24,000 bases of DNA from an uncultured Desulfosarcina sp. (lineage in GTDB: Bacteria > Desulfobacterota > Desulfobacteria > Desulfobacterales > Desulfosarcinaceae), in assembly GCA_963668455.2 (NCBI GenBank), contig CAXXOY010000009.1, positions 191,467 to 215,466 on the forward strand, read 5' to 3'. Shown in pieces: positions 8,773 through 23,076 of this stretch. The notes below the pieces were generated by a model that was given only the letters and a program-made list of their open reading frames with translations, was not told the DNA's origin and did not search any database. The position numbers and the translations under genes are program-made. Positions within the stretch are counted from its first letter, which is position 1. The number at the start of each line of letters is the position of its first letter.

Positions 8773-9690
8773 TCATTCGGCAAAAACTGATTCCACCAGT
8801 CTTTGTGTGGCTGCCAAGGCATCCACAAACGTAATAATCTCGTCAGGGCCGGCAAACGACACTTGCAGCACGAAGGTTTCGTATTCCTTCGCCCACCCTC
8901 TGTCATGGTGCAAATGGTCGAGCATGGTGGTGAAGCGCTCGACCGGGTCCCGAGGCGCCCCTCCTCCTCCCCGGCCAGCGTCCTTTTCCGCTATTTTCCG
9001 CACTAAGGCCACGAATTCCGGCGCGCTTTCGATACGGCTTTCAAGAGCCGCCAAATCGTAAAGGTGACGTATGATGGCGGGATCGTCATTTTCCGCCCCT
9101 CGCTTGCGCGTGCAAACGCGCCAAGCCAAGGCGTTCAATTTATCGGCGGCTGTTTCCATTGGGTCAACGCAGGGGAAACCCAGAACCTCGGGCGGATTCT
9201 TTTCAAACCGTGCAATCAAAGACCGAATAGGCCGGGTTATTGGTTGCAGCACCGGCGCAAGGAAAGACATTTCGATACGGATATAAGGTCTCAGGCCCGG
9301 GCCTGTTTGGAAATGACTGTGATAGGCCAAATCGGCGGAGAAAAAGCGGCTTTCATTACCCTTTTTAACGGCGATCAAATTTAAATCAGCGGAGGTCAGG
9401 ACCGATAAAACTTGCTCTCGGTAACCGCTACGCTGTTTTCGCTGCTGAGCGTTACTCGCGTCGGCGGGCATGGAGACCTTGAAGTCGATATCTTCGGAAA
9501 AACGTTTGATAAGCCCCCATCCCTTCGATAACGACGTGCCCCCCGAAAAAGCAGGTACCGCGCCGACACCGTCGAGGGACGAAATCACACGTATGGCTTG
9601 AACGACATGCCAATCCTTCTCGACCAGACGTTCGTCGCTCAAAAACGCGCCAGCGACCCGCTCAATAATTTTCCGCTCAAGCACGTTCAA
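8773..9690 (-). CDS. abiEii: AbiEii/AbiGii-family nucleotidyltransferase toxin (type IV TA / abortive infection)
   Basis: Family motifs EKDWHV and FSGGTSLSKGWGLIKRFSEDIDF are present. It overlaps the upstream antitoxin-like gene by 14 nt. Confidence 0.9.
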   Translation of the reverse strand: MNVLERKIIERVAGAFLSDERLVEKDWHVVQAIRVISSLDGVGAVPAFSGGTSLSKGWGLIKRFSEDIDFKVSMPADASNAQQRKQRSGYREQVLSVLTSADLNLIAVKKGNESRFFSADLAYHSHFQTGPGLRPYIRIEMSFLAPVLQPITRPIRSLIARFEKNPPEVLGFPCVDPMETAADKLNALAWRVCTRKRGAENDDPAIIRHLYDLAALESRIESAPEFVALVRKIAEKDAGRGGGGAPRDPVERFTTMLDHLHHDRGWAKEYETFVLQVSFAGPDEIITFVDALAATQRLVESVFAE

Positions 9691-10084
9691 AACTCATAAA
9701 AACCCCTTTGTAACCGATCTTGCGGCGCACCCTTTTCCGGGTGGCGATCACTCGGCCTGCCGGGACTTGGGTTGTTTTACCGGCATTATAGGCTTGTTCA
9801 AAACGCGTTGGGGCGCTTTCGACCCCCAACCGGTTAAGCGCCTCGGCCGTCAAAGAATAGAGCCCCTTGACCGGCGTCGGTGTACCGTCGAAGGGCGATG
9901 GCACGGCACGCGTGTAAAGCCCCTGGCCTATTTTCATAAGCATCCCCTTCTTCACAAGCCCCCGAAGGGCACGACCAACCTGGTCATAGCCGCCAAGGTC
10001 TTTAAAGTCGGCACGCAGAAAGACGTCGCCGCGCTTACGGTCGATACGTTTCATCAAACGTGTTTCCAAATTTTCGGTTCTCAT
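9677..10084 (-). CDS. abiEi: AbiEi-like wHTH antitoxin/transcriptional regulator
   Basis: I prefer the ATG at 10084 (MRTENLETRL), which has GAGGTG 4 nt upstream, over the track start at 10135. RGDVFLRADFKDLGGYDQVGRALRGLVKKGMLMKIGQGLYTR matches the AbiEi N-terminal wHTH pattern. It is paired with abiEii. Confidence 0.75.
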   Translation of the reverse strand: MRTENLETRLMKRIDRKRGDVFLRADFKDLGGYDQVGRALRGLVKKGMLMKIGQGLYTRAVPSPFDGTPTPVKGLYSLTAEALNRLGVESAPTRFEQAYNAGKTTQVPAGRVIATRKRVRRKIGYKGVFMSFERA

Positions 10085-10106
10085 ATTGCACCTCGCATTT
10101 AATGTC

Positions 10107-10135
10107 AACTTACGACATTTTTGAGATGATTTCAA
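10107..10135 (-). promoter_or_regulatory. Candidate sigma70 promoter for abiEi-abiEii (TTGAAA-17 nt-TAAGTT on the minus strand)
   Basis: The -35 complement lies at 10130-10135 and the -10 complement at 10107-10112, giving a leader of about 15-20 nt to the ATG at 10084. TAGTTAA direct repeats (10136-10142, 10148-10154) abut the -35. Confidence 0.35.
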
Positions 10136-10470
10136 TAGTTAATCAATTAGTTAAAACGAAAATCAGCGCGCCCCTACTTAATATTCGCTCTGGTATAATC
10201 CTCATCTCATATTGCAACGATTTGCGATATATTTTTTAACCCTTTTCGGTCCTCCTGTGTATTAAAAGAAAGATGCGTTTGAACTACTTTAAGAAAAAAT
10301 AATATTCCGTATCAAGCTGAAATATTGAATAAATCTATGATGTTTGAGTATAATCCAAAATAGAAAATAAACATATACGTAGTTTGGTTTATAAATACGT
10401 CGCAGAGAAGTAATATTTTACTTGACGATCTATGTCTTTTTCTTTAAATTTATTTTAGTTATTCGCTCAA
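10136..10470. other. AT-rich non-coding region between the divergent AbiE and ssb modules, containing promoter-like hexamers, short repeats and an IHF-consensus match
   Basis: The region is visibly AT-rich compared with the roughly 50% GC flanks and has no credible ORF. An extended -10 TGGTATAAT lies at 10191-10199, and TTGAAT-18-TATAAT at 10325-10354. AATCAATTAGTTA (10141-10153) fits WATCAANNNNTTR. Confidence 0.5.
10422..10450 (+). promoter_or_regulatory. Candidate sigma70 promoter reading toward ssb (TTGACG-17 nt-TAAATT)
   Basis: The hexamers lie at 10422-10427 and 10445-10450. AT-rich context makes chance matches likely. Confidence 0.3.
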
Positions 10471-10749
10471 TGAAATTTCTTCATTGTTCCCTCCGCCACT
10501 GAGCGGACCTCGGGATGACAGGTTTTATCCTGAACAATCCTTCTTTCAGATCCATTCATTCCTTCAATGGATCGGTGTTCGCCAATCGACCATAATGCCC
10601 AAAACGGCATAAGCCAAACCTTGGGTAAATGCTTTTCTACGACGGCCAAGCCAAACAGTAGAATTGCCAATCCGTGGTCGTGTCATATCCACACTTCATG
10701 CAACACAATTAACAACTTCCAGTAAACATTCACTAACGAGGGGCTAAAG

Positions 10750-10786
10750 CACTTGTGCGCAATTCTTCTGCTACAGGTGTTTTTTT
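10750..10786 (+). terminator. Terminator- or attenuator-like hairpin with a T7 run just upstream of the ssb RBS
   Basis: CACTTGT (10750-10756) pairs with ACAGGTG (10773-10779) as 7 bp including one G-T, with a 16-nt loop. TTTTTTT follows at 10780-10786. The ssb Shine-Dalgarno AAAGGAG starts about 15 nt later. Confidence 0.4.
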
Positions 10787-10814
10787 ATGTCCTACCAACT
10801 GAAAGGAGCGTTTC

Positions 10815-11519
10815 ATGAACAAGGCAATCATCATCGGTAGATTGGGTAAAGAAGCATTTTTTTTAAATGGTGGTGAGCAAACCGCCTGCCGATTTCAATT
10901 GGCGGTAAAGGAGACATGGAAAAACAAAAACAACGAACCTCAGGAGCGAACCGAGTGGGTCAATGTGGCTGCCTGTGGGTCCATCGCCGAACGGATGAAA
11001 GGCGTTGCTAAAGGCACGCTTGTGTTTGTTCAGGGATCGGCCAGCACAGGCAGCTACACGAAAGATGATGAAACCCGCTACTATTTCGAAATCATGGCCA
11101 GCCAGCTGGGCATTTTGCCTGCAACCGAAGAAAAATCGTTTAAAGATCTGGATCAAAATGAAATCGCCTTGGTCGGTCGTCTTGGGCAGGATCCAATGAC
11201 CCCCAAGGAGGGAATTACTCACTTCTCTTTGGCATGTAACGACTATTTCAACGGCCAGGAAACCACCCAGTGGATCAGCGTTGCCACATTCAATGGGTTG
11301 TCTGTCAATGCTGCCAGAATATTGAGCAAAGGCCGTCTGGTTTTCGTCGAAGGCAAAGTGCGAACCAGAAAATATGACAAGGATGGGCAGACCCGTCATA
11401 CCACGGGTGTTATCGCACACAAGTGGCGGGCACTGGATTCGAAGCCTAAAAAACAAGAATCAAGCGAGTATCACGAATCTGCATTCTACGGCTATGCGGA
11501 TGACGATATTCCGTTTTAA
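10815..11519 (+). CDS. ssb: Single-stranded DNA-binding protein with two tandem OB folds and one C-terminal acidic tip
   Basis: OB1 begins MNKAIIIGRLGKEA...WVNVAACG and OB2 begins EIALVGRLGQDP...WISVATFNG...GRLVFVEGKVRTRKY. The C-terminal tail ends ...YADDDIPF, the canonical SSB tip. Confidence 0.9.
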   Translation: MNKAIIIGRLGKEAFFLNGGEQTACRFQLAVKETWKNKNNEPQERTEWVNVAACGSIAERMKGVAKGTLVFVQGSASTGSYTKDDETRYYFEIMASQLGILPATEEKSFKDLDQNEIALVGRLGQDPMTPKEGITHFSLACNDYFNGQETTQWISVATFNGLSVNAARILSKGRLVFVEGKVRTRKYDKDGQTRHTTGVIAHKWRALDSKPKKQESSEYHESAFYGYADDDIPF

Positions 11520-11526
11520 CTCAACG

Positions 11527-11556
11527 CCCCTGGATCTTAAGCCCTTGGATCCGGGG
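11527..11556 (+). other. GC-rich hairpin between ssb and the primase-like gene
   Basis: CCCC(T)GGATC at 11527-11536 pairs with GATCCGGGG at 11548-11556 (9 bp, one bulge). No T-run follows. The GATCCGGGG arm resembles the P1 hairpin of the DUF932 leader. Confidence 0.35.
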
Positions 11557-11567
11557 GCTCACAACCC

Positions 11568-12359
11568 ATGAGGTTATCGATGGAACGAATCTTTCAAAAA
11601 CTCGAACGATATTTTGGCAGATGGAAAATCGGTGTGCTGAATCCGGACAGAGGACTATGGTCGCTTTCGCCTTCCGTAAATAAGTTGGGATATCTGAGGG
11701 CAATGAACGCCAGCGGCTATCACATCTTCATGAAGCCGGAGGACGAAAGCCGCTTCCTGCTTTTGGACGATATTCCGGAAAACAAATTGGCATACCAAAA
11801 AGAGTTGAAACGATTTAAGCCCGGGCGTCTGGTGGTGGAAACCAGCCCCGGAAATTATCAGATATGGATCAGGGCTGACCGAAGCATCGGCAATCCGGAA
11901 AAGAGATACTGGATCAACTTTTTCCGGGCAGATCCCGCCTGCGATCCGAACTTACGTTGGGGCCGCTGTCCGGGGTTTCGCAATTGCAAACCGAAATACG
12001 GCAAGAATGGTCGCTATCCCCTTTCCCGCCTTGTTTGGGTGGATTGGAAAAAAGCTGCCCAGATCCCGAACGTGGCAATGCCGGCAAGGCCAACAGACCG
12101 GCAGACTATCAAGGTAAAATCGATAAGCCATCACATATCGCCCCTCCCTATCCTGCGTTCCGACTATGAGCGCGGGGATGATTCGGCCACCGACTTTGCT
12201 TATGCGCTCGCACTACTTCGGCGGGGAACCGACCCGGAAGTCGTTGCCGATAGGCTGCTGCAAGAAAGAAGTAATTGGATCCACCATAAAGGCCAGCGGC
12301 GCCAGGCCGATTACCTTCAGCGCACGATCAAGCGCGCCGTTGAAATCATAAATCAATAA
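11568..12359 (+). CDS. RepB'-type (RSF1010-like) plasmid primase-like protein
   Basis: FLLLDDI ... LVVETSPGNYQIWIRA resembles the catalytic-core motifs I recall for the RepB primase family. The true start may be the second ATG at 11580, which has GAGG 6 nt upstream. This is a recall-based call. Confidence 0.5.
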   Translation: MRLSMERIFQKLERYFGRWKIGVLNPDRGLWSLSPSVNKLGYLRAMNASGYHIFMKPEDESRFLLLDDIPENKLAYQKELKRFKPGRLVVETSPGNYQIWIRADRSIGNPEKRYWINFFRADPACDPNLRWGRCPGFRNCKPKYGKNGRYPLSRLVWVDWKKAAQIPNVAMPARPTDRQTIKVKSISHHISPLPILRSDYERGDDSATDFAYALALLRRGTDPEVVADRLLQERSNWIHHKGQRRQADYLQRTIKRAVEIINQ

Positions 12360-12383
12360 AAGATCGTTTGATTCTTAAACCCA

Positions 12384-12471
12384 ACCCCAGATCCGGGGTA
12401 CCGCAATGGTTCCCAGACAGGGTTGTGTTCTCCCTATGGTTAGAACCATTGCGGCTTTATTCATAGGGAGG
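12384..12471 (+). promoter_or_regulatory. Structured 5' leader, copy A (upstream of DUF932): P1 hairpin, 12-bp P2 stem, apical anti-SD segment, SD
   Basis: P1 is ACCCC/GGGGT at 12384-12399. P2 pairs 12401-12412 with 12443-12454 as perfect CCGCAATGGTTC/GAACCATTGCGG. CTCCCTATG (12430-12438) is the exact reverse complement of CATAGGGAG (12462-12470), which covers the SD. Confidence 0.6.
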
Positions 12472-12477
12472 CAACCA

Positions 12478-13278
12478 ATGAAATCACAATTAATCCCCCT
12501 TACCAATGATCAAATCGTCGAATTGGCTCCTGCTACGGGAGCGATAAACCCACACGAAGCGGTTTCGGATCGGTATAGCTTTGTACCAACCATCGAGGCC
12601 GTCGATTTATTGAGATCGGTCGGATGGCAACCCGTGCATGTAAAGCAATCCGGAACAAGAAAAGATGATCGCAACGGTTATCAAAAACACATCATTCGAT
12701 TCATGCAGGGAGCGTTTTCAACCGAACAGGAACGCGTCGATCTGGTAATGACCAATTCCCATGATCGTGGCTGTGCGTTCCAGCTTTACGCTTCCATCTG
12801 GCGTAAAATTTGTGGAAATGGGTTAATGGTTTCCTCGAAACTGTTTAATTTTTCACATAGACATGTAGGTTTTGACTTAAAAGCCTTCTTGAATTCCGCC
12901 TACCAAATTGCCGAAGGCGCCGGAGAGATTGCCGAACAAGTCAATGATTTAAAGGCAATAGAACTATCTCCAAACGAAAAAGGCGTGTTCGCCATGGCTG
13001 CACATAAATTGGTTTATGACGATATCAATATGGCACCGATTTTGCCATCACAGTTATTAAACGAACGGCGCTATGACGATCGAGGCAATGATCTTTGGAC
13101 AACATACAATGTTGTCCAGGAGAACATAATAAAAGGAGGCATATTTGGAAGCAAGCGAAATGAAAAAGGCCATATTCGTCGGGTCAAAACCCGACCCGTA
13201 AAATCCATTGATCGGGATGTCAAACTCAACAAATCACTGTGGGTATTGACCGAAGAGATGGCCAAACTAAAAGCCTGA
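12478..13278 (+). CDS. DUF932-family protein (common in plasmid/ICE leading regions)
   Basis: The start is ATG 12478 (MKSQLIPL), with GGGAGG 6 nt upstream. The track start at 12406 would translate the structured leader. TNSHDRGCAFQLYASIWRKICGNGLMV matches the DUF932 core pattern (NSHDGS...R.vC.NG). Confidence 0.8.
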   Translation: MKSQLIPLTNDQIVELAPATGAINPHEAVSDRYSFVPTIEAVDLLRSVGWQPVHVKQSGTRKDDRNGYQKHIIRFMQGAFSTEQERVDLVMTNSHDRGCAFQLYASIWRKICGNGLMVSSKLFNFSHRHVGFDLKAFLNSAYQIAEGAGEIAEQVNDLKAIELSPNEKGVFAMAAHKLVYDDINMAPILPSQLLNERRYDDRGNDLWTTYNVVQENIIKGGIFGSKRNEKGHIRRVKTRPVKSIDRDVKLNKSLWVLTEEMAKLKA

Positions 13279-13337
13279 TTAAATAAACAGGCAATGCTGT
13301 ACGGTTCTTCAAAATATGCGTTAACTCAAATATTGAA

Positions 13338-13426
13338 TCCCCCAAATCGGGGAACCGTAAAGGTTTCCCGATGGGGATATCCTCCCTTATTCGTGGGAAC
13401 CTTTGCGGCTGACAACAGGGAGGATA
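13338..13426 (+). promoter_or_regulatory. Structured 5' leader, copy B (upstream of radC), with the same architecture as copy A
   Basis: P1 is CCCC/GGGG at 13340-13352. P2 pairs 13355-13368 with 13395-13408 (14 bp including 2 G-T). TATCCTCCCT (13378-13387) is the exact reverse complement of AGGGAGGATA (13417-13426), which covers the SD. Confidence 0.6.
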
Positions 13427-13428
13427 AA

Positions 13429-13968
13429 ATGAGCACAAAAGAGTATCGTTTCTATTCATATAAGCTGCATATGGTCAAGGAACAAGAAATCAAGTTCTTG
13501 AGTGACCAGGAAATCCACAACAGCTTCGCGGGTTCCGAAGTAATCAGAAAAGTTATCCGCCAGACTGGCCAGACAGATCGTGAAAACTTCGTAGTTGTTA
13601 TGCTGAATACAAAGCTCAAACCCATCGGTGCAAACCTGGTGTCTACCGGAAGCCTGACCCGTTCTATCGTTCAACCCCGTGAAATCATAAAAGCGGCATT
13701 GAATATGCCATGCAAAGCCTTGATCCTTGGCCACAATCATCCGTCAGGAGACCCCTCGCCATCCATGGAAGATAGGTTGATAACCTTCATGATAATGGCG
13801 TCCGCGCAACTTTTCGAAGTGGAGATTCTGGATCACATCATCGTGGATATGGATTCCGATAAATACTTATCCTTTGCGGATGAAAACATCATTAAAATTA
13901 CGAAACGTAACGTACGCTCACTGTTGGAAAAAATCTCAAATATACAAATGAATATGTGCCAGGTTTGA
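13429..13968 (+). CDS. radC: RadC-like JAB/MPN-domain protein
   Basis: The start is ATG 13429 (MSTKEYRF), with AGGGAGGA upstream. The JAMM-type motif GHNHPSGDPSPS is present, followed by ED..T and EILDHIIV. Confidence 0.9.
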   Translation: MSTKEYRFYSYKLHMVKEQEIKFLSDQEIHNSFAGSEVIRKVIRQTGQTDRENFVVVMLNTKLKPIGANLVSTGSLTRSIVQPREIIKAALNMPCKALILGHNHPSGDPSPSMEDRLITFMIMASAQLFEVEILDHIIVDMDSDKYLSFADENIIKITKRNVRSLLEKISNIQMNMCQV

Positions 13969-14018
13969 TTGGAAACGCTCTGGGCACACCATGAAGCAGA
14001 GTTGACCAATCAGACTGT

Positions 14019-14060
14019 CCGACCGTCTGTTTTTGATTTTAAAAAAAAACAGACGGTCGG
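14019..14060. repeat. Perfect 16-bp inverted repeat (CCGACCGTCTGTTTTT / AAAAACAGACGGTCGG) downstream of radC, either terminator-like or a protein-binding hairpin
   Basis: Arms at 14019-14034 and 14045-14060 are separated by a 10-nt A/T spacer. The T and A runs lie inside the hairpin rather than after it, so it is not a textbook intrinsic terminator. A smaller CAGAC/GTCTG hairpin (14011-14029) followed by TTTTTGATTTT could terminate + strand transcription. Confidence 0.6.
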
Positions 14061-14425
14061 CAAGCTTGCTTATTCCATGACTGCGCAAGAATTTATTACC
14101 GTCTGGAATAAATAGATAATCTTCAATCCTCACTGCGACCGTTCCTGTTTAAAAATGCCCTGAAAAAAACAAATTGGCGACTGACGACCATTTTTTTCGG
14201 CACACGGAAAAGGCAAAAAGGGAAAGATCGCAATTACCAAAATCCCATTCTTTGTAACCGCTGATCATCACATCAGCGTATGTATAAAGCGATTATCCTT
14301 ACCCTGTACCCGTTTCCGGGGCGTCGCCTACGGCGATGCGGGGTAAAATCGCATTAACCGAGATTCTTATTAATCCGGTGATCTCACCGTTTGATAGATC
14401 GCTATAAGATTGCAAATGAAGGGAG

Positions 14426-15388
14426 GTGGTCGAACTGATCAACTCAACGAGGACAGATACCCTGGTAATGCAAGCGATACGAGGCATAAAGAAAACGAAA
14501 TCGGGATCAACCAAAACCAGGCACAACCATATAAAAGAAGCCCGCAGATTTGTAATAACGATTCGAAAGATAGGTTATGGTGTGAAAAGATGGAAAAATG
14601 TAACCAACCTTCACGTGCAAAAAGCGGTTGATAAATGGAAGGAAGATGGTTTGAAACCGGCAACGATCAAAGAATACTTATCCGGTGTCAGAACTATTTG
14701 CAAGATCTACGATAATGATAAAATCAAACAGGACAATACACAATTCGGGATCCCCAATCGCGTGCTTGTAGACAATCGTGATAAGTCATTGCCCCAAGAA
14801 GTGTTTCAAAATGCGGTGGCAGAATTGAAGCAAAGCAACAACAGCGATGACAATAGAGTTGCTGCCCAATTGCAATTGCAACGTTATCTTGGATTACGAG
14901 TGGAAGAGTCGTGCAAATTCAATGCGCATCAAGCAGTAATGACAAATGGTAGAGTATTCATTCAGCATGGAACAAAAGGTGGAAGGGAGCGGATAATAAA
15001 CAAGCTTACCGAAAAAGGAAAAGAGGCGATTGAATATGCAAGAAAAATATCTGGAAACAGCAATCTTATCCCCAAGGATCACAGCGAAAAACAATGGATT
15101 CAAAAATATTATCGAATAACCAGAGCCAAGGGAATTTCAAAACAAGAATGCGGAGCATCAAGCCATGGATGTCGGCATGCTTATGCACAGGATCGCTATG
15201 AAGAAATAACCGGATTTAAGGCGCCGTGCAAGTTTGACTCAAAAAGAGCATTCAGGAATAATGCAGAAACAATAGCTGGCGAAAAATGGAAAAGGTTGAA
15301 TCAGGATGCACGGCAGATAATAAAAGCTGAGTTGGGCCACGGCCCGGATCGTGACGATGTGGTAAGTCAATATTTGGGCGCGATTTAA
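14426..15388 (+). CDS. int: Tyrosine recombinase / phage-integrase-family protein
   Basis: Catalytic signature: GLRVEES (Arg I), HGCRHAYAQ (H-x-x-R-H), and LGHGPDRDDVVSQYLG (LGH ... Tyr). The start is uncertain, either GTG 14426 right after GGGAGG or ATG 14468. Confidence 0.85.
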   Translation: MVELINSTRTDTLVMQAIRGIKKTKSGSTKTRHNHIKEARRFVITIRKIGYGVKRWKNVTNLHVQKAVDKWKEDGLKPATIKEYLSGVRTICKIYDNDKIKQDNTQFGIPNRVLVDNRDKSLPQEVFQNAVAELKQSNNSDDNRVAAQLQLQRYLGLRVEESCKFNAHQAVMTNGRVFIQHGTKGGRERIINKLTEKGKEAIEYARKISGNSNLIPKDHSEKQWIQKYYRITRAKGISKQECGASSHGCRHAYAQDRYEEITGFKAPCKFDSKRAFRNNAETIAGEKWKRLNQDARQIIKAELGHGPDRDDVVSQYLGAI

Positions 15389-15417
15389 AAAAGAAGTTTT
15401 TCTTGTGCAATTTAAAA

Positions 15418-15445
15418 GCCTTCGCTTGAAAGCGAGGGCTTTTTT
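15418..15445 (+). terminator. Rho-independent terminator after the recombinase gene
   Basis: GCCTTCGC/GCGAGGGC form an 8-bp stem (one G-T) with loop TTGAAA, followed by a T6 run. An A4 run precedes it, so it may act bidirectionally. Confidence 0.75.
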
Positions 15446-15884
15446 ATTTACCGGCACTGTGAACAGCAATTCTGCAAGATACTAACACCAGTGCTGCCAT
15501 AAAGAAGTAAATTAACATTAATAGGGGATTGCCGGTAATGGTAGCCACTGAATAAAACAAGAGGAAATGGATTTCGCAACCATAGATACTATGTCAGTAA
15601 GTATCTTTTACCAATTATGTGTCATTTTACACATTTCCAATAAAACTCTTACATGAATGCCACACGTCAGTCCTATTATCTTCCTTCTTTTCTTCTTATG
15701 GACAGCTTTTCAAAAACTATTTTTCATTGTTATTTTAGTATGTTTTAAGCACATCGAGTAGAATTCTTGCATTGGCATATATGTTGCGACAACAATTGAA
15801 CGCGATTCACAGTATTTATTGAAACGCAAGATAAACCAGCCCACTACATAACGGTAGGGCCAGCCTAACATACAGAGGGTTATC

Positions 15885-16824: not shown

Positions 16825-19800
16825 ATGTTCAAGAACCTTTTATCGAACAACCGGCAAACTGCGTCTTTATGGGCACTGGTGTTACTTTTTGCCTTCTTCG
16901 TGTTTTTTAACGGAACGACGGTAGTTTTTGCCGACGACAGCTTATGCGCGGTTGTCAAAATTGAAATCCAACAGGAACTTACCCTTGAGCGTCAGGCGTT
17001 CGACGCCCATATGACGATCAACAACGGTCTTTCCCACATCTCGCTTGAAGATGTAAGCATAAACGTTTGGTTTACAGATGAGGCCGAGAATCCGGTATTG
17101 GCCACATCCGATCCCAACGAAACCTCCGCCAGTTTTTTCATCAAAGTCGATTCCATGACCAATATTTCCAGTGTGGATGGGTCAGGCACCGTAGCACCAT
17201 CCACTTCAGCCGATATCCATTGGATGATAATTCCCTCCCCTGGGTCTTCCAATGGATTGGAAAGTGGCACGTTGTATTATGTTGGTGCTACGCTGTCGTA
17301 TACTCTCGGCGGGGAAGCCAATATCACAGAGGTCACTCCCGACTATATTTATGTCAAACCAATGCCTACTATCGCGCTGGACTATTTTCTTCCTTCCGAG
17401 GTCTATGGCGATGACGCTTTCACTACAGAAATCGAAGCGCCGGTACCTTTTTCCCTGGGCGTTAGGGTTTCAAACAACGGAGACGGAACTGCACGTCAAC
17501 TTAAAATCGAGTCCGCCCAGCCCAAGATTGTAGAAAACGAACAGGGACTGCTTATCGGGTTTGCATTAGAGGGCAGCCAGGTAAACGGGCAACCGGCAAC
17601 CGATAGTCTGATGGTTGATTTCGGCGATATAGCGCCTGGGACCTCGGGAACTGCCCGTTGGACCATGAGCTGTACCCTCTCGGGCAAATTTACTGAATTT
17701 GAAGCGGATTTTTCCCATTCGGACGAACTGGGCGGCGAGGTGACTTCGCTTATAAATGCAGCTCAGACCCACTTTTTAGTACATGATGTTCTGGTTGATC
17801 TGGTCGGGCGGGACCAAATTCGCGACTTTCTTGCCAAGGATGGCGACATTCTGCGTGTTTATGAATCGGATAACGTGGATACCGTGGCAACCGATCTGTC
17901 CTCCCAGACAGGAATATACTACCAGGGTACCCAAAACGGCCGGCCGGTTTATAAATTCTCTATGCCCGTCAATGTTGGATTCGTATATACCCGCCTTCCC
18001 GACCCTTACAATGGCAGCAAGGTTATTTATTCAGCTGTTCGAAACGATGGAAAAGTCATTAAAACCGATAATATCTGGCTTTCCAAATCTCGGGACGAAC
18101 AGAGCTGGGATTATTACATCGACCTGTTCGATGCAAACACCACCGGTGAATACACCGTGGTGTTCGATGATCCGGAAGCCACTCCCCAGGCACCGGTGCT
18201 TCAATACATAGCCAATGTCATTGCCATTGAAGGCGAACGCATTTCTTTTGTCTCCATGGCCAGCGATCCGGATGGCACCATTCCATCCTTGTCCGCCGCC
18301 GTGCTGCCGGCTGGGGCTACATTCACCGATCAAGGCGACGGCACAGGTGTTTTTGACTGGAAAACGGTGGTCGGCCAGGCCGGCTCCTACGGGATTACTT
18401 TTAAAGCCTCCGACAGTGCGTTGTATAATACCCAACGGGTAATTCTGACCATACGTTCCATTGACGATACAGATGGCGACGGTATGAGCGACGCCTGGGA
18501 GATGGCGAATTTCGGTACTCTGGACCGCGATGGCACCGGCGACTTCGACGGCGATGGAATCAGCGATCTGGATGAATACCTGGCCGGTTCCGATCCCACG
18601 GACGAAGACCATGCTCCCACCGTGCCGGCAATTATCTCCCCCTTGCCGGGTGAATCAGTATCTGCTTTAATCCCGGCGCTGGAAATCGAAAACAGTACCG
18701 ATGCAGACGATGATGAAATTTCTTATCAATTTGAAATCTATGCAGATGACCAATACAGCACTTTGGTCGCTGCCAATGATAATGTCCCCCAAACCATGGA
18801 CACCACTTCCTGGACGCTTACAGAGGAGCTAACCGAAAACCAGAACTATTTCTGGCGGGTACGGGCCACGGACGGCTACAGCTTCAGCCAATGGGCCTAT
18901 GGAAGCTTCTTTGCCGCAGGCGAGAACGACTCGCCACAAGGAGTGGCTATTAGTTTCCCACAGGACGGTTTTGACGTCGATTCCCTGAATCCCTTGTTGG
19001 AGGTAACCGGCATCTCCGATCCCGACGAGGAAGAGCTTACCTGTTCCTTTGAAGTATATGAAGACATGGCCATGACCGCCCCTGTTGCAGAAGTGCATGA
19101 TCTGATTGTCCAGGCTGACGGCGTGGTTGATTGGGCAGTGAATGTAGAGTTATCGGACAACACAACCTATTTCTGGCGTGCAGTAGTGACCGATGACCAA
19201 GGTGCGGTTGAAGAAACATCTTTAGCCTCTTTTACGGTCAATACGAGTAACCACGCCCCAAACGTTCCGATCATCAATTTTCCTGCCTATGGGGAAGATG
19301 TATCGTCAACATCGGTGGAACTATCGGTGGTCAATGCACAGGACACCGATGGCGATATCCTTGACTATTATTTCGAAATCGATACGGACCCCGGTTTTAA
19401 CAGCTCTGAGAAACATGTTTTCGATTTCATAGAAGAAGGCGTGGATATAACATCCTGTCCGGTCTCAAACTTGAGCGACAACACCACCTACTATTGGCGT
19501 GCCATGGCCACGGACAACCTTTCCTCAAGTAGATGGGTAAACGGTAGTTTTTTCGTCAACACCGCCAATAATGAACCGAATGCCCCCGCCTTGAAGAACC
19601 CTGGCGAGGAAGCCTGGGTAGGCGTACTAAAGCCGAACCTGATCCTTGCTGATGGCGTTGATGTGGACAACGATTCCTTGAGCTATCGATTTGAGGTGTA
19701 CTCTGATTCTAACCTGGAAAATCTGGTCGCATGGGCTAAATCCGAATCCTGCGATTGGACGGTGGTCACCGAGCTGACCGATCAAACCCGTTATTACTGG

Positions 19801-22800
19801 AGAGCCCGCGCAATCGATGAGCATGGCGACGAAGGCGATTGGAGCTGCACGGCATCCTTCTTTGTAAAAGAGGAGGAACAGCCGCAACCTGAAGTGATCA
19901 CAGTCAATGTTTCCACCGACAAGGGTGATGGGCTCGAAAACATTAAGGTTTACGTATTTACCGAGGCCGATAGATACACAGGCGTCAGTGCCACAACGGA
20001 AACGGACGGAAGTGCGATTTTCGATGTAGATGCATTGGAACCGGGCGTGTATAAGTTCAGAGCCGACTACCTGCGCAGCAAATTCTGGTCGGACGCCGTA
20101 TCCATCCCGGAAACCGCAACCGTTCCTATACAGATAGACGTGGAAACCGTGACCGTCAATGTCGGTACGGCGTTCGGAACGGTGTCCGGAGCAAGGGTTT
20201 ATCTCTTCTCGGAATCGGGTAAATATCTTGGCGTTTATCTGGAAACCGACGCCAATGGCCAGGTATCCTTTGATCTTCCCGCTGGGGAAACCTACCTCTT
20301 CAGGGTCGATATTCTACGCAACCAATATTGGAGTGCCGTAACCACCATACAGTCTGGTGAAAGCACTGCTGTTGACGTCGATGCAGGCGGCGGAAAGCTC
20401 CAAGTTGTCGTGAAAAAGGATGAAACGGCGACTATCGAAGGGACAAAAGTCTATCTTTTTAACGACAGCGAGAAATACCTTGGTGTTTGTGCCACCACGG
20501 ACGATGCCGGCACCGTGGAATTTAATGTCACCGAAGCCGATTATAAAATAAGGGTCGATTATCTGGGATACAAATATTGGAGCGAGACGCTTCATATAAC
20601 GACCGATACAGTTGAAACCATGGTTATTCCACACCAAGAAGTCAGGTTGACACTGCAAGGTCGCTATCAGGAAATCGACACACCAATATCCGGCATCAAA
20701 AGCTACCTTTTCACCTCGGACAGTTCCTATGTGAAACAGTACCTGGAAACCGACGATAATGGCCAGGCCACTTTCTACCTCCCCGAAAAGGAATACAAAA
20801 TCCGCTCGAATGCTTTCAAAAGCCAGTATTGGTCGGAGCCCTTCATCTGGGAAGACCCGGTAATAACCATTCCCATGGCCGAGGCACGGATCACGGTGGA
20901 CGCTGCCGGCGTTCCCAAGGAGAATGTGCCTGTCTACGTGTTTAACGCGGATGGAAACTACCTGGGTATCAAGGACGTCACCGACGAAAACGGTCAGGCG
21001 ATCTTCCGGATTCCTGAAGGCGAATATGCATTTCGCGCGGACTATCTGAAAAACAAATTCTGGGCGGAAAGCTGCACAGCGGTCGCCGATATGGTTAACG
21101 ACTTTAGCGTATCGCTTGGCGGAGGCACCTTTCAACTGACTGTCATGGACGATGACGATGCGCCGATTTCAGGTGCTAAGTGCTACGTTTATAATGAAAA
21201 CGACGCCTATGTCGGCCTAAAGGCAGCCGCCGACGATAATGGCGTGGCAAGTTTCGATCTTGCCAATGGTACTTACCGTTTCCGCGTGGACTATTTAGGG
21301 CATCGTTTTTGGAGCGACTCCGTCACGGTAACCGGCAATGCTGAAGAAACCATGGTTATCGCAAAATCCATGGTTTGGGTCCGTGTTCTCATGGCGGACG
21401 GCGTCGCCACCGGAGCCAAAGTTTATCTTTTCTCCGAATCCGATAAATACCTCGGGCAATATGCCGTAACCGACGATAATGGCGAAGTTGAATTCGACCT
21501 GCCCACCGGCGTTGTCTTTAAATTCCGGGCCAACATTCTTGGCAGCCAGTACTGGAGCGAAGACATCACCGCTTCGGACGATTTATCCACCGTGACAATC
21601 GATGCCGGCGGCGGCCGGCTGCAAGCAACGGTTCAAACCGACGATGGAACGCCTTTATCCGGCCTATCGGCATATCTCTTCAGCGAAGAAGGAAAATACC
21701 TTGGCCTTTCCCAAACCACGGATGCATCCGGTGATATAGCCTTCACCGTTCCCGAGGGCTCATACCGCATTCGCGTCAACTATCTGGGATACACGTTCTG
21801 GGAAGAAGATATAGAGGTTATTGACGACACCACGGTTTCGTTCATCATCGCAATTCAGCCGACAACGATCACCGTTGCCGGCGGCTACCAGGGTGTGGAT
21901 ACGGCACTTGAAGACATTCGTGTTTATCTTTTCAGTCCCACCGGGAAATATTTGGGTCTTTCCGGTTATACCGACGACCAAGGCACGGTAGTCTTCGATC
22001 TCCCCAAGCAAGACTATATGGTTCGAGTAGATTTGGCGGGAACACAATTCTGGTCCGATCCGTTTACCTGGCAGGATACCACCGTGAGAATTCCCATGAC
22101 CGAAGCCGTGGTAACGGTGACCGGAGCCGGCCTTCCCACCGCGAGTTGTAATGTCTACCTTTTTTCTGCCGATAATACTTACCTGAAAAGCAAAATAACT
22201 ACCGACGATCAAGGGTCGGTCCGTTTTCATTTGCCTGCGCAAACATATAGATTCCGAGCGGATTATCAGGCCAAACAGTACTGGAGCGGAGATGTTGTTC
22301 TGGAAGCGGATGCTGAAAACCCGGTACTGATCAGCGTCGGCGGTGGAAATGTCACACTTGGCGTTAAAAAGGACGATGGTACAGCCATTGCCGGCATCAA
22401 CTGTTATGCGTTTGCCGATAGCGGCTCTTACCTTGGCCTTAAAGGCGCCACTGGCGATGATGGGCAGGTTGCCTTCAGCCTGGCTGACGGTGATGTGAAA
22501 TTCCGCGCGGATTATTTTGGCTACAAATACTGGAGCGACATCCTCTCTGTTCCCGGCAACCAGAACCAAACCATTACCATCGAGCATTCAGACATCTCTG
22601 TTACTTTTCAGGGGCGTTATCAGGGAACAATTCAGCCCTTGGAAGGGCGTAAGGTGTATTTGTTTACGCCTTCCGGCCGCTACCAGGGGCAAAACCGGGT
22701 TACCGATGCCGAAGGGCATGTCAGCTTCAATTTGCCAGACCAATTGTATCAGGTTCGCTGTGATGAATTGCGCCGGAAATATTGGTCGGAGTCTTTTCAA

Positions 22801-23076
22801 TCGCGGGATACCACGGTCACCGTTCCCATGGGACAGGCTGTGATCGATGTGACCTTTTCCGGTGAACCGGCCGAGAATGCCAGGGTTTATCTGTTCAGCG
22901 ATGAGAATCGTTACCTGGGCCGATACGAGACCACCGACAGCGATGGGACCGTTCGATTCATGCTCCCGGTTGGTTCGTATCTTTTCCGCACAAACCTGGA
23001 TGGCAAACAAAGCTGGACAGATATCACGGAGGTAACCGCTGACCTGGAAACTGTCGCCGGCGTGGCGATGGAATAA
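16825..23076 (+). CDS. Giant secreted multi-domain repeat protein (2083 aa)
   Basis: GGAGGG precedes the ATG. The signal peptide is MFKNLLSNNRQTASLWALVLLFAFFVFFNGTTVVFA/DD. A roughly 410-aa N-terminal region carries a CARDB-like segment (VRVSNNGDGTARQLKIE). An Ig/cadherin-like domain spans about aa 455-545, and Asp-rich TSP3-like Ca-binding repeats span aa 546-596. Four beta-sandwich repeats of about 105 aa follow, then 13 repeats of 77-84 aa resembling carboxypeptidase-regulatory or Cna-B-like domains. I recognised no C-terminal sorting signal. Confidence 0.9.
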   Translation: MFKNLLSNNRQTASLWALVLLFAFFVFFNGTTVVFADDSLCAVVKIEIQQELTLERQAFDAHMTINNGLSHISLEDVSINVWFTDEAENPVLATSDPNETSASFFIKVDSMTNISSVDGSGTVAPSTSADIHWMIIPSPGSSNGLESGTLYYVGATLSYTLGGEANITEVTPDYIYVKPMPTIALDYFLPSEVYGDDAFTTEIEAPVPFSLGVRVSNNGDGTARQLKIESAQPKIVENEQGLLIGFALEGSQVNGQPATDSLMVDFGDIAPGTSGTARWTMSCTLSGKFTEFEADFSHSDELGGEVTSLINAAQTHFLVHDVLVDLVGRDQIRDFLAKDGDILRVYESDNVDTVATDLSSQTGIYYQGTQNGRPVYKFSMPVNVGFVYTRLPDPYNGSKVIYSAVRNDGKVIKTDNIWLSKSRDEQSWDYYIDLFDANTTGEYTVVFDDPEATPQAPVLQYIANVIAIEGERISFVSMASDPDGTIPSLSAAVLPAGATFTDQGDGTGVFDWKTVVGQAGSYGITFKASDSALYNTQRVILTIRSIDDTDGDGMSDAWEMANFGTLDRDGTGDFDGDGISDLDEYLAGSDPTDEDHAPTVPAIISPLPGESVSALIPALEIENSTDADDDEISYQFEIYADDQYSTLVAANDNVPQTMDTTSWTLTEELTENQNYFWRVRATDGYSFSQWAYGSFFAAGENDSPQGVAISFPQDGFDVDSLNPLLEVTGISDPDEEELTCSFEVYEDMAMTAPVAEVHDLIVQADGVVDWAVNVELSDNTTYFWRAVVTDDQGAVEETSLASFTVNTSNHAPNVPIINFPAYGEDVSSTSVELSVVNAQDTDGDILDYYFEIDTDPGFNSSEKHVFDFIEEGVDITSCPVSNLSDNTTYYWRAMATDNLSSSRWVNGSFFVNTANNEPNAPALKNPGEEAWVGVLKPNLILADGVDVDNDSLSYRFEVYSDSNLENLVAWAKSESCDWTVVTELTDQTRYYWRARAIDEHGDEGDWSCTASFFVKEEEQPQPEVITVNVSTDKGDGLENIKVYVFTEADRYTGVSATTETDGSAIFDVDALEPGVYKFRADYLRSKFWSDAVSIPETATVPIQIDVETVTVNVGTAFGTVSGARVYLFSESGKYLGVYLETDANGQVSFDLPAGETYLFRVDILRNQYWSAVTTIQSGESTAVDVDAGGGKLQVVVKKDETATIEGTKVYLFNDSEKYLGVCATTDDAGTVEFNVTEADYKIRVDYLGYKYWSETLHITTDTVETMVIPHQEVRLTLQGRYQEIDTPISGIKSYLFTSDSSYVKQYLETDDNGQATFYLPEKEYKIRSNAFKSQYWSEPFIWEDPVITIPMAEARITVDAAGVPKENVPVYVFNADGNYLGIKDVTDENGQAIFRIPEGEYAFRADYLKNKFWAESCTAVADMVNDFSVSLGGGTFQLTVMDDDDAPISGAKCYVYNENDAYVGLKAAADDNGVASFDLANGTYRFRVDYLGHRFWSDSVTVTGNAEETMVIAKSMVWVRVLMADGVATGAKVYLFSESDKYLGQYAVTDDNGEVEFDLPTGVVFKFRANILGSQYWSEDITASDDLSTVTIDAGGGRLQATVQTDDGTPLSGLSAYLFSEEGKYLGLSQTTDASGDIAFTVPEGSYRIRVNYLGYTFWEEDIEVIDDTTVSFIIAIQPTTITVAGGYQGVDTALEDIRVYLFSPTGKYLGLSGYTDDQGTVVFDLPKQDYMVRVDLAGTQFWSDPFTWQDTTVRIPMTEAVVTVTGAGLPTASCNVYLFSADNTYLKSKITTDDQGSVRFHLPAQTYRFRADYQAKQYWSGDVVLEADAENPVLISVGGGNVTLGVKKDDGTAIAGINCYAFADSGSYLGLKGATGDDGQVAFSLADGDVKFRADYFGYKYWSDILSVPGNQNQTITIEHSDISVTFQGRYQGTIQPLEGRKVYLFTPSGRYQGQNRVTDAEGHVSFNLPDQLYQVRCDELRRKYWSESFQSRDTTVTVPMGQAVIDVTFSGEPAENARVYLFSDENRYLGRYETTDSDGTVRFMLPVGSYLFRTNLDGKQSWTDITEVTADLETVAGVAME
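18613..19872 (+). repeat. Four tandem coding repeats of about 105 aa inside the giant gene
   Basis: A recurrent pattern is seen: P-x-x-P ... acidic cluster (NSTDADDDEISYQFEIY / ISDPDEEELTCSFEVY / AQDTDGDILDYYFEID / GVDVDNDSLSYRFEVY) ... NTTY(F/Y)WRA ... W..GSFF. The (F/Y)WR anchors fall at aa 676, 783, 890 and 991. Confidence 0.8.
19888..23073 (+). repeat. Thirteen tandem coding repeats of 77-84 aa with higher-order three-unit modules
   Basis: The anchor motif (K/R)VY(L/V)F...YLG...TD..G.V.F.LP.G.Y.FR.DY....YWS recurs at aa 1041, 1124, 1208, 1292, 1369, 1452, 1532, 1615, 1699, 1776, 1859, 1943 and 2020. Unit subtypes (GGG-type, RYQ-type, PM.EA-type) recur in the same order three times. Confidence 0.8.

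Follow-up and report, generated by a model that had tools for sequence, protein, structure and literature searches.

The DNA analysed here, a stretch of 24,000 nucleotides from an uncultured Desulfosarcina sp. (contig CAXXOY010000009.1; hereafter the window, with positions counted from its first letter), belongs to an integrative conjugative element in a Desulfosarcina-type bacterium and carries two related, structured intercistronic leaders. Leader A (12380-12480) lies between the stop codon of a RepB-type primase gene (12359) and the start codon of a DUF932 gene, whereas leader B (13334-13431) precedes a gene for a RadC-like protein; both are on the plus strand and they are the only two copies of the motif in the window. 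With a probability of roughly 0.55, these leaders are cis-acting elements that control translation as sense-strand (mRNA) structures, each with two predicted, mutually exclusive folds, one hiding the Shine-Dalgarno (SD) sequence of the next gene (OFF) and one leaving it unpaired (ON). They belong to an apparently undescribed family that precedes almost every early establishment gene of related elements.

Each leader is built from the same series of segments. In leader A, the C-tract S0 (CAACCCC, 12382-12388) can pair either with the G-run S2' (GGGTTG, 12420-12425) in the OFF fold or, as hairpin H1, with S1 (12395-12399) in the ON fold. S1 (GGGG) and hairpin H2 (GGGGTACC-GCAAT-GGTTCCC) together occupy 12395-12414, and positions 12401-12412 of this part double as the 5' strand of a long stem. 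S2', the OFF partner of S0, has the CCC of the anti-SD as its ON partner. The anti-SD itself, CTCCCTATG (12430-12438), is complementary to CATAGGGAG (12462-12470), which contains the SD for the ATG at 12478; the SD region as a whole reads CATAGGGAGG (12462-12471) with the core GGGAGG. Between them lies the right arm GAACCATTGCGG (12443-12454), which serves as the 3' strand of the long stem (12401-12412 with 12443-12454, 12 bp, linker of 7 nt) or, in the OFF fold, folds on itself as the small hairpin H3. Leader B is organized in the same manner. Its S0 (ATCCCCC, 13337-13343) pairs with 13373-13378 (S2') in the OFF fold and with S1 (13349-13353) in the ON fold, and its hairpin H2 (13346-13372) has 11 bp and the loop GTAAA, with 13355-13368 doubling as the long-stem 5' strand. 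The G-run GGGG of S2' (13373-13376) is followed by the anti-SD TATCCTCCCT (13378-13387), complementary to the SD region AGGGAGGATA (13417-13426) that contains the SD for the ATG at 13429, and the right arm GGGAACCTTTGCGG (13395-13408) contributes either to H3 or to a long stem of 14 bp (13355-13368 with 13395-13408, including the G-T pairs 13358:13405 and 13366:13397; linker of 8 nt). The original prediction, made from the letters of the two copies, had reported these complementarities, and on recheck all of its coordinates and sequences are correct. The element order that it gave, i.e., 5' stem strand, anti-SD, 3' stem strand, SD, is also as described and equals the strand order S1a-S2a-S1b-S2b of an H-type pseudoknot.

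The anti-SD complementarity is a real feature and not a product of chance. When the upstream 80 nt were dinucleotide-shuffled and compared with a 23-nt ribosome-site window, 12 of 3000 shuffles for copy A (0.4%) gave a perfect complement of 9 nt, and 9 of 3000 for copy B (0.3%) gave one of 10 nt. Complements of such strength occur upstream of only three of the 16 genes of the window, those for DUF932, RadC and the primase.

Genome and metagenome scans with DUF932, together with individual homologue look-ups, provided 20 distinct, non-redundant leaders of the window type, which precede DUF932 genes, RadC genes and a small Cys-rich gene after the primase; homologues of leader A are found in L001-L003, L009-L011, L049, L097, L098 and L100. 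The complementarity is retained in these homologous leaders, as the 7-bp core of the anti-SD:SD helix is paired in at least 18 of the 20. Outside the core, eight pairs of the flanks show changes on both sides, for example TATCC/GGATA, GGGTG/CACCC, CGTC/GACG, TGCGTCT/AGATGCA, TTTGG/CCAAA, and TATT/AATA. The masking helix lies directly upstream of the start codon (ATG or GTG), its 3' end being 2-6 nt away by one count and 0-6 nt by another. The proposal that complementarity rather than sequence is kept therefore holds across the family, since SD and anti-SD flanks covary in the 20 leaders and 8 of 10 anti-ribosome-site pairs change on both sides in a second class of leaders described below. In both classes, an upstream segment complementary to the SD or start region is kept by compensatory change. 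In-frame stops occur in 6 of 16 leaders, so the leaders are not coding. A leader peptide or coding extension was also considered and rejected, as the ATG in the H2 loop is missing in several copies and has no SD, and the frames carry stops.

Secondary structure prediction yields two competing folds. In both copies the minimum-energy fold consists of a 5' hairpin domain and an anti-SD:SD hairpin, and not of the long stem. Within its 5' domain S0 pairs with S2' around H2, which is the left arm folded on itself, and the anti-SD:SD hairpin encloses the right arm as the weak hairpin H3. This would be the OFF fold, in which S1 and the left arm are taken up by H2, the right arm by H3, and the ribosome site is hidden by the anti-SD. 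The alternative fold combines H1, formed by S0 with the G-tract S1, the long stem between left and right arms, and, at the apex, pairs between S2' and the anti-SD's CCC; here the SD is free, and this would be the ON fold. Each segment of a leader finds a partner in both folds, and because there are three C-tracts and four G-tracts per leader, one G-tract is always spare, namely that of the right arm in the OFF fold and the SD in the ON fold. Predicted energies for leader A are -39.4 for the OFF fold, -38.9 when the long stem is forced and -36.3 with the SD free, and those for leader B are -46.0, -43.4, and -41.3, respectively. In three A-type homologues (L001A, L002A, L049A) the long-stem fold is the predicted minimum; the SD is free in the minimum fold of L002A and L049A, and in L001A part of the SD is engaged by S0 in a helix that closes around the long stem. 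To open the ribosome site of the window copies a predicted 4.7-6.1 kcal/mol is needed, which is not above the cost for shuffled sequences, so the element would be poised and not simply repressive; simple strong repression by the window leaders is ruled out on the same ground. When growing prefixes of the leaders are folded, the 5' domain is the first predicted optimum; synthesis of the right arm (or of s3, its counterpart in the second class) shifts the optimum to the long stem, and synthesis of the SD shifts it further to the masked fold.

Both sets of helices are conserved, and all of them covary except for the invariant C:G core of H1 and for H2, which has one both-side change. For the OFF-fold structure as a whole (H2, anti-SD:SD helix and a mis-registered H3), the covariation score was reached by none of 500 shuffles, and this same whole, with the mis-registered H3 included, is 71% paired compared with 44-62% in slid registers. 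H3 is 92.5% paired and exchanges A:U for G:C at two of its four pairs (78:90, AU15/GC3/GU2; 79:89, AU11/GC4/GU1). On the side of the ON fold, the long stem is 89% paired, compared with 41-60% for H1 plus long stem in slid registers, and it covaries at bases that lie in the H2 loop (27:85, CG11/UG5/UA4; 30:82, AU11/UA4/UG1). An extra pair of H1 that exists only in the ON fold shows AU6/UA5, and RNAalifold run on a plain MAFFT alignment independently yields H1 plus the long stem. Individual copies point in the same direction, as the leader L003A carries a compensating AAACCC/GGGTTT in S0/S2', and a change of CCCC to CCTC in L100 is accompanied by restored pairing with a right-arm GAGG. Comparison of these sequences thus suggests two mutually exclusive sets of helices, each apparently under selection, in a sample of few lineages for which a kissing-loop reading is possible. 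In L100, the sequence of leader B is truncated (AATCTCCAATTCGGGGTGATGG...; L100:1215-1300) and is directly followed by the terminator; radC appears to be deleted there.

A related type of leader, termed class 2, is carried by DUF932 homologues of about 60% identity. Its parts follow in the order S0, H2 (GGGGCA-loop-TGCCCC), S2', s3 (GTCTTGCCCC), an A/U-rich linker and the ribosome site (GGAGGCAAGACC-ATG). From 26 such leaders a covariance model was derived, which gave 83 matches below E = 0.001 in 38 loci, corresponding to 77 distinct copies; 79 of the 83 are on the gene strand, and the four minus-strand matches all overlap a plus-strand leader. There are up to six copies per 3 kb, one ahead of nearly every gene, and in L014 they precede genes for a 102-aa unknown protein, SSB, DUF6927, DUF3846, RadC, and DUF932. 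The model also matches the two window leaders weakly (E 0.015 and 0.12), which ties the two classes together. A pattern scan had given six matches in viral contigs, none of which is the motif according to the covariance model.

Among the 77 distinct class 2 copies (model-fitted alignment), pairing in the helix between s3 and the ribosome site reaches 94%, and both-side changes are seen at 8 of its 10 pairs; together with H2 this helix accounts for 48 double-change cells, compared with 9.4 +/- 2.6 in shuffles. The 5' arm of H2 (s1) resembles the ribosome site, and in 83% of cells the bases of s3 can alternatively pair with this arm and the loop (s1:s3). As both helices use the same s3 nucleotides, the ON and OFF folds of class 2 exclude each other by construction. 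The OFF fold is predicted to be favoured by about 8-17 kcal/mol in most copies, well beyond shuffles, with a mean opening cost of 9.6 and a range of 1.1-17 kcal/mol over the class 2 leaders. S0 is free only in the open fold, and masking it lowers the mean opening cost from 9.6 to 4.5 kcal/mol. The distance between the upstream stop codon and S0 is 4-12 nt in about half of the class 2 copies and 16-29 nt in the other half; in most leaders of the window type it is 20-63 nt, with about 20 and about 60 nt for the two window copies.

The balance of wobble pairs indicates which strand is under selection. For leaders of the window type, cells with G:U and with A:C number 25:8 in the core of the long stem, 28:4 in the anti-SD:SD helix and 11:0 in H2 (64:12 in total), and for class 2 the corresponding counts are 62:17, 55:6, and 23:1 (140:24 in total). 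G:U thus far exceeds A:C in every helix, which argues that the sense strand is selected, and the original proposal of a fold specific to the mRNA-sense strand, derived from two G-T pairs, is upheld for the whole family by these totals. Folding of single sequences was uninformative for the choice of strand, as both strands fold equally well as RNA or DNA. A scan of 10000-14500 for promoter-like or terminator-like sites found none in or next to either leader on either strand. An Frpo-type single-strand promoter was therefore rejected, since the sense strand folds, -35 and -10 boxes are absent and the stems comprise merely 12-14 bp; this agrees with the earlier preference for an mRNA leader, given that no -35/-10 pair occurs on either strand and that the wrong strand folds for such a promoter.

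Several other identities were tried and set aside. An intrinsic terminator or attenuator is not indicated, as there is no U run directly after a stem (the long stem is followed by no more than TTTAT or TTTTA in A-type leaders, and by no such stretch in B-type leaders). An opposite-strand pair of the RSF1010 ssi type does not agree with the position of both window copies and of 79 of the 83 related matches on the gene strand. A G-quadruplex of the four G-tracts was not favoured, as a C-tract matches each of them and the tracts of class 2 are too few. Neither the window nor 20 related loci gave an Rfam 15 match at gathering threshold, no relevant match appeared at E <= 10 or E <= 5, a BLAST search of 10800-14400 against a plasmid collection gave no match, and no description of DUF932 leaders was found in the searchable literature.

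If the two folds are in competition, their balance would set the protein output of DUF932 and RadC. The choice would probably be made during RNA synthesis, so that fresh transcripts could be trapped in the open fold and be translatable for a limited time. Candidate triggers, as suggested by modelling, could be co-transcriptional folding itself and, in class 2, the ribosome terminating on the upstream cistron. When the latter stops 4-12 nt upstream of S0 it could unlock the OFF fold of the next cistron, a possibility that we propose because S0 is free only when the leader is open, because the stop codon is that close and because masking of S0 lowers the opening cost. For the window copies, unlocking by a terminating ribosome was discarded, as masking of S0 has no consistent effect and stops lie 20-63 nt away, and it is kept for part of class 2 only. 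Masking of an SD with a competing helix is a classical arrangement; what is new is the tract logic and the placement of such a module, in many copies, between the cistrons of establishment operons.

Several points weigh against such a two-state control. At equilibrium, opening the ribosome site costs 6.3 kcal/mol for leader A compared with 8.0 +/- 1.7 for shuffled upstream sequence, and 7.0 compared with 6.6 +/- 2.5 for leader B, so that a net regulatory effect of the window leaders is a prediction that equilibrium occlusion does not bear out. Every energy given here is a prediction that contains neither pseudoknot nor tertiary terms. The 20 leaders of the window type represent few lineages, and the two alignments were hand-anchored on helices or model-fitted. 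A kissing contact of H2 with H3 through their complementary 5-nt loops could instead account for the covariation seen in the loop of H2; such a contact would itself be a natural first step towards the long stem. Finally, unlocking by ribosomes cannot be general, since many stops are 16-29 nt (class 2) or 20-63 nt (window type) away.

With regard to other explanations, the leaders might be constitutive attenuators, insulators or stabilisers that do not switch, the 5' domain protecting processed cistrons, the anti-SD helix keeping translation low independently of context, and the long stem being a tolerated by-product of near-palindromic arms. We regard this as possible but unlikely. Repetition of the element before nearly every gene in compact operons, the A-rich spacers ahead of S0 and an equilibrium opening cost of the window leaders equal to that of shuffled controls would all suit it, and so would a third repeated leader found in relatives, a plain hairpin followed by an unstructured CA-rich ribosome site, which suggests a generic intercistronic function of hairpins. 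A passive hairpin, however, has no need of matched alternatives, whereas the long stem covaries at positions that are unpaired in H2, H1 gains a covarying pair found solely in the ON fold, the change of CCCC to CCTC in L100 restores pairing with the GAGG of the right arm, and s1 of class 2 looks like a ribosome site and finds partners in the anti-ribosome-site strand in 83% of cells. Improbable in our view is a static H-type pseudoknot, in which the long stem and the anti-SD:SD helix would exist together and either keep the ribosome site closed or offer it in a fixed arrangement. The original prediction had left the choice between a pseudoknot and mutually exclusive ON and OFF states, and it is the latter that is better supported, because the long stem and the incompatible H3 both covary and the energies of the folds are close. 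The strand order would fit a pseudoknot, both of its helices covary, and loops of about 8-20, 1-7, and 7-8 nt give some slack; even so, a linker of 7-8 nt would have to span a stem of 12-15 bp, which is sterically borderline, the conserved G-run of S2', the S0:S2' pairing and H2 would be left without a role, and in class 2 the two helices share nucleotides and cannot coexist.

A signal in single-stranded DNA on the transferred strand, for instance a priming site for the RepB-type primase, a replication roadblock or an Frpo-like promoter, seems quite improbable to us. Sites of this kind are known, ssiA and ssiB being the priming sites for RepB' of RSF1010, and leader A adjoins a primase gene; repeated hairpins of single-stranded DNA accompany leading-region genes of the F and ColIb plasmids (PMC11541004), and folded as DNA, both strands of both copies also beat shuffles (z -3.4 to -4.6). 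In contrast to what would be required, selection acts on the sense strand, whereas an Frpo must form on the template strand, no -35/-10 pair is found, and the two copies share a strand, which the ssi pair of RSF1010 does not. It would also be unexpected for a DNA signal that the 3' helix always lies 0-6 nt from the start codon and covaries with the ribosome site of each gene. The related element L094 has a MobA/MobL relaxase gene downstream on the same strand, from which, together with the usual layout, the template strand would be the transferred one; this agrees with the leading-region rule (PMC11541004). That the leaders are simply duplicates with inherited, functionless complementarity, or that the complementarity arose by chance, is hardly credible. 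They are clearly paralogous, and the nearly invariant CTCCCT/AGGGAG core provides no covariation signal by itself, but the flanks differ and compensate, the covariation counts contradict this explanation, shuffles reproduce such complements at rates of 0.3-0.4%, and the unrelated DUF932 leaders of L005 and L007 mask their ribosome sites beyond any of 60 shuffles. A two-state translational control element thus remains the reading that we prefer.

Such a two-state leader would share features with several known systems. The ermC leader is a translational attenuator with alternative pairing, and the MS2 maturation gene and hok mRNA have kinetically controlled leaders. As in these cases, the SD is masked by an upstream complement and freed by a competing helix, with folding order or an upstream ribosome deciding, whereas the present leaders have no leader peptide, are intercistronic and multi-copy, and have their own layout of three C-tracts and four G-tracts. 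In repZ/repA of IncI and IncB plasmids, a hairpin loop pairs near the ribosome site in dependence on termination at the repY leader ORF, and the resulting pseudoknot activates while antisense RNA opposes. Pairing of a hairpin loop with the ribosome-site sequence of a plasmid gene is a common feature, and for class 2 a terminating ribosome is a plausible activator as well; here, in contrast, the loop-to-SD pairing is the masking helix, and a scan of 10000-14500 found no antisense promoter. The attC sites of integrons, which, when folded in an mRNA, can impede translation of the cassette that follows, are likewise imperfect palindromes between promoterless genes beside a tyrosine recombinase gene, but it is their bottom (antisense) strand that folds, they are recognized by IntI, and they mark cassette 3' ends regardless of the next start codon. 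This analogy was rejected, as the present fold is on the sense strand, its helix tracks the start codon and the integrase belongs to another family. The radC and STAXI RNA motifs were defined by comparative genomics near radC, ssb, integrase and anti-restriction genes, and both RNA and single-stranded DNA are considered as their active form. The gene neighbourhood and the question of RNA or single-stranded DNA are the same as here, whereas the architecture differs, and neither the window leaders nor relatives are scored by any Rfam 15 model, even at E <= 10.

Two further systems come from conjugative establishment regions. EGeRS1 repeats of pLS20-family plasmids are conserved, GC-rich and rich in inverted repeats, and are located immediately upstream of the ribosome sites of several establishment operons; their mechanism is unexplained and a single-stranded DNA promoter has been deemed unlikely (PMC8708921). 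Compared by description only, they differ in their size of 400-600 bp, their occurrence in Bacillus plasmids and in that no pairing with ribosome sites has been described. The Frpo and ssi promoters of F and ColIb-P9 are also repeated structured elements in fixed orientation before ssb and other establishment genes (PMC11541004). They comprise about 300 nt, fold on the transferred template strand and have -35, -10 and UP boxes in the stem, whereas the present leaders have about 95 nt, fold on the sense strand, lack promoter boxes and include the ribosome site.

Relatives of the element with a DUF932 of 69-72% identity carry a third, unrelated type of repeated leader (L094:1950-5430, L095:1900-3010, L096:1960-4610) before the genes for SSB, an anti-restriction protein, DUF932 and others. 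It consists of a hairpin with freely covarying stems and a conserved loop (GGCCAAC or GGCCAGG), followed by a single-stranded AACCCCAAC and an unmasked SD. In these elements the SSB gene has a clear TTGACA-17-TATATT promoter that overlaps a palindrome.

DUF932 homologues with 82-90% identity are present in Desulfosarcina genomes. The 5' part of the window encodes a TraG-like protein, a TraD coupling protein, ParA, ParB, an HU/IHF-like protein and, on the minus strand, an AbiEi/AbiEii pair. The latter, an AbiEii toxin with an AbiEi-like antitoxin (8773-10135), is thus in opposite orientation between the HU/IHF-like gene and the ssb operon. In the 3' part, an AT-rich gap is followed by SSB, the RepB-type primase, leader A, DUF932, leader B, the RadC-like gene, a terminator hairpin and an integrase. 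On the plus strand, the SSB gene (10815-11519) and the primase gene (11568-12359) are the presumed operon members upstream of the leaders, the DUF932 gene (12478-13278) encodes 266 aa from the ATG at 12478, and the RadC-like gene (13429-13968) encodes a JAB-domain protein. Most simply, leaders A and B would be intercistronic parts of one ssb-to-radC transcript, considering the gene order, the presence of the sole promoter-like sites at 10325-10354 and 10422-10450 and the lack of promoters and terminators at the leaders. Those sites, the only sigma-70-like ones of the region, are located in a non-coding AT-rich stretch of about 700 bp before ssb (10100-10814), which is a candidate for the operon promoter and possibly also for oriT. 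At the other end, just after radC, there is a perfect GC-rich inverted repeat of 11 bp (CCGACCGTCTG / CAGACGGTCGG, 14019-14060, strand-neutral), bordered by a run of T and, on the opposite side, by a run of A. The ssb-to-radC operon probably ends at this hairpin, a probable strong terminator for both directions, which is kept downstream in L099 and L100.

The spacer between SSB and primase (11526-11561) forms a hairpin (GCCCCTGGATC...GATCCGGGGGC) whose 3' arm is the sole G-rich, SD-like stretch ahead of the primase ATG (11568). As this hairpin has GATCCGGGG in common with the S0-S1 part of leader A, the primase gene may be under a simpler version of the same type of control. Both leaders are open in frame with the gene downstream (12406-12477 for DUF932 and 13294-13428 for RadC), and therefore ORF finders stretch DUF932 to 290 aa and RadC to 224 aa. 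The longer DUF932 ORF, which begins at 12406, is an artefact that results from the leader being open in frame, and DUF932 homologues of 279-290 aa in the databases (P0002, P0003, P0006) probably share this false N-terminal extension; leader-spanning open frames account for over-long DUF932 annotations in public databases.

Farther downstream in the window, a hairpin with a T run directly after the integrase gene (15383-15450), which gives weak matches to several leader and terminator models of Rfam, is an ordinary intrinsic terminator. A 2083-aa protein of repeated carboxypeptidase-regulatory-like, Ig-like and macroglobulin-like domains (16825-23076), whose gene is preceded by one for a transglutaminase-like protein, represents cargo or flanking chromosome. 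There are no tRNA genes within the window. Two tRNA genes adjoin the related element L005 (L005:381-543) and may mark its integration site, and in L001 a group II intron (domains 1-4; L001:6113-6287) is found 3 kb downstream of the DUF932 locus.

Taken further, though we hold this only tentatively and think it unlikely as it stands, the leaders might define a post-transcriptional establishment regulon, in which one shared two-state RNA device stands before every early gene (ssb, radC, DUF932, DUF3846, DUF6927, and others). The genes would be translated in a short, ordered burst after entry into a new cell and then be shut off, and the burst could originate from fresh transcripts in the ON fold, from terminating ribosomes that unlock the next cistron or from an element- or host-encoded factor that recognizes the common 5' domain. 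The means by which conjugative elements achieve a fast, transient burst of establishment proteins are understood for few plasmids; F and ColIb use single-strand promoters, and p576 uses a repressor. If it exists, such a regulon would be the translational counterpart of the Frpo promoters. The leader family is a candidate for a new entry in RNA family databases and offers a small, directly testable system. An RNA device of about 95 nt, supported by covariation and placed before each establishment gene, would put the control of establishment in these elements of Desulfobacterota at the level of translation and not of transcription.

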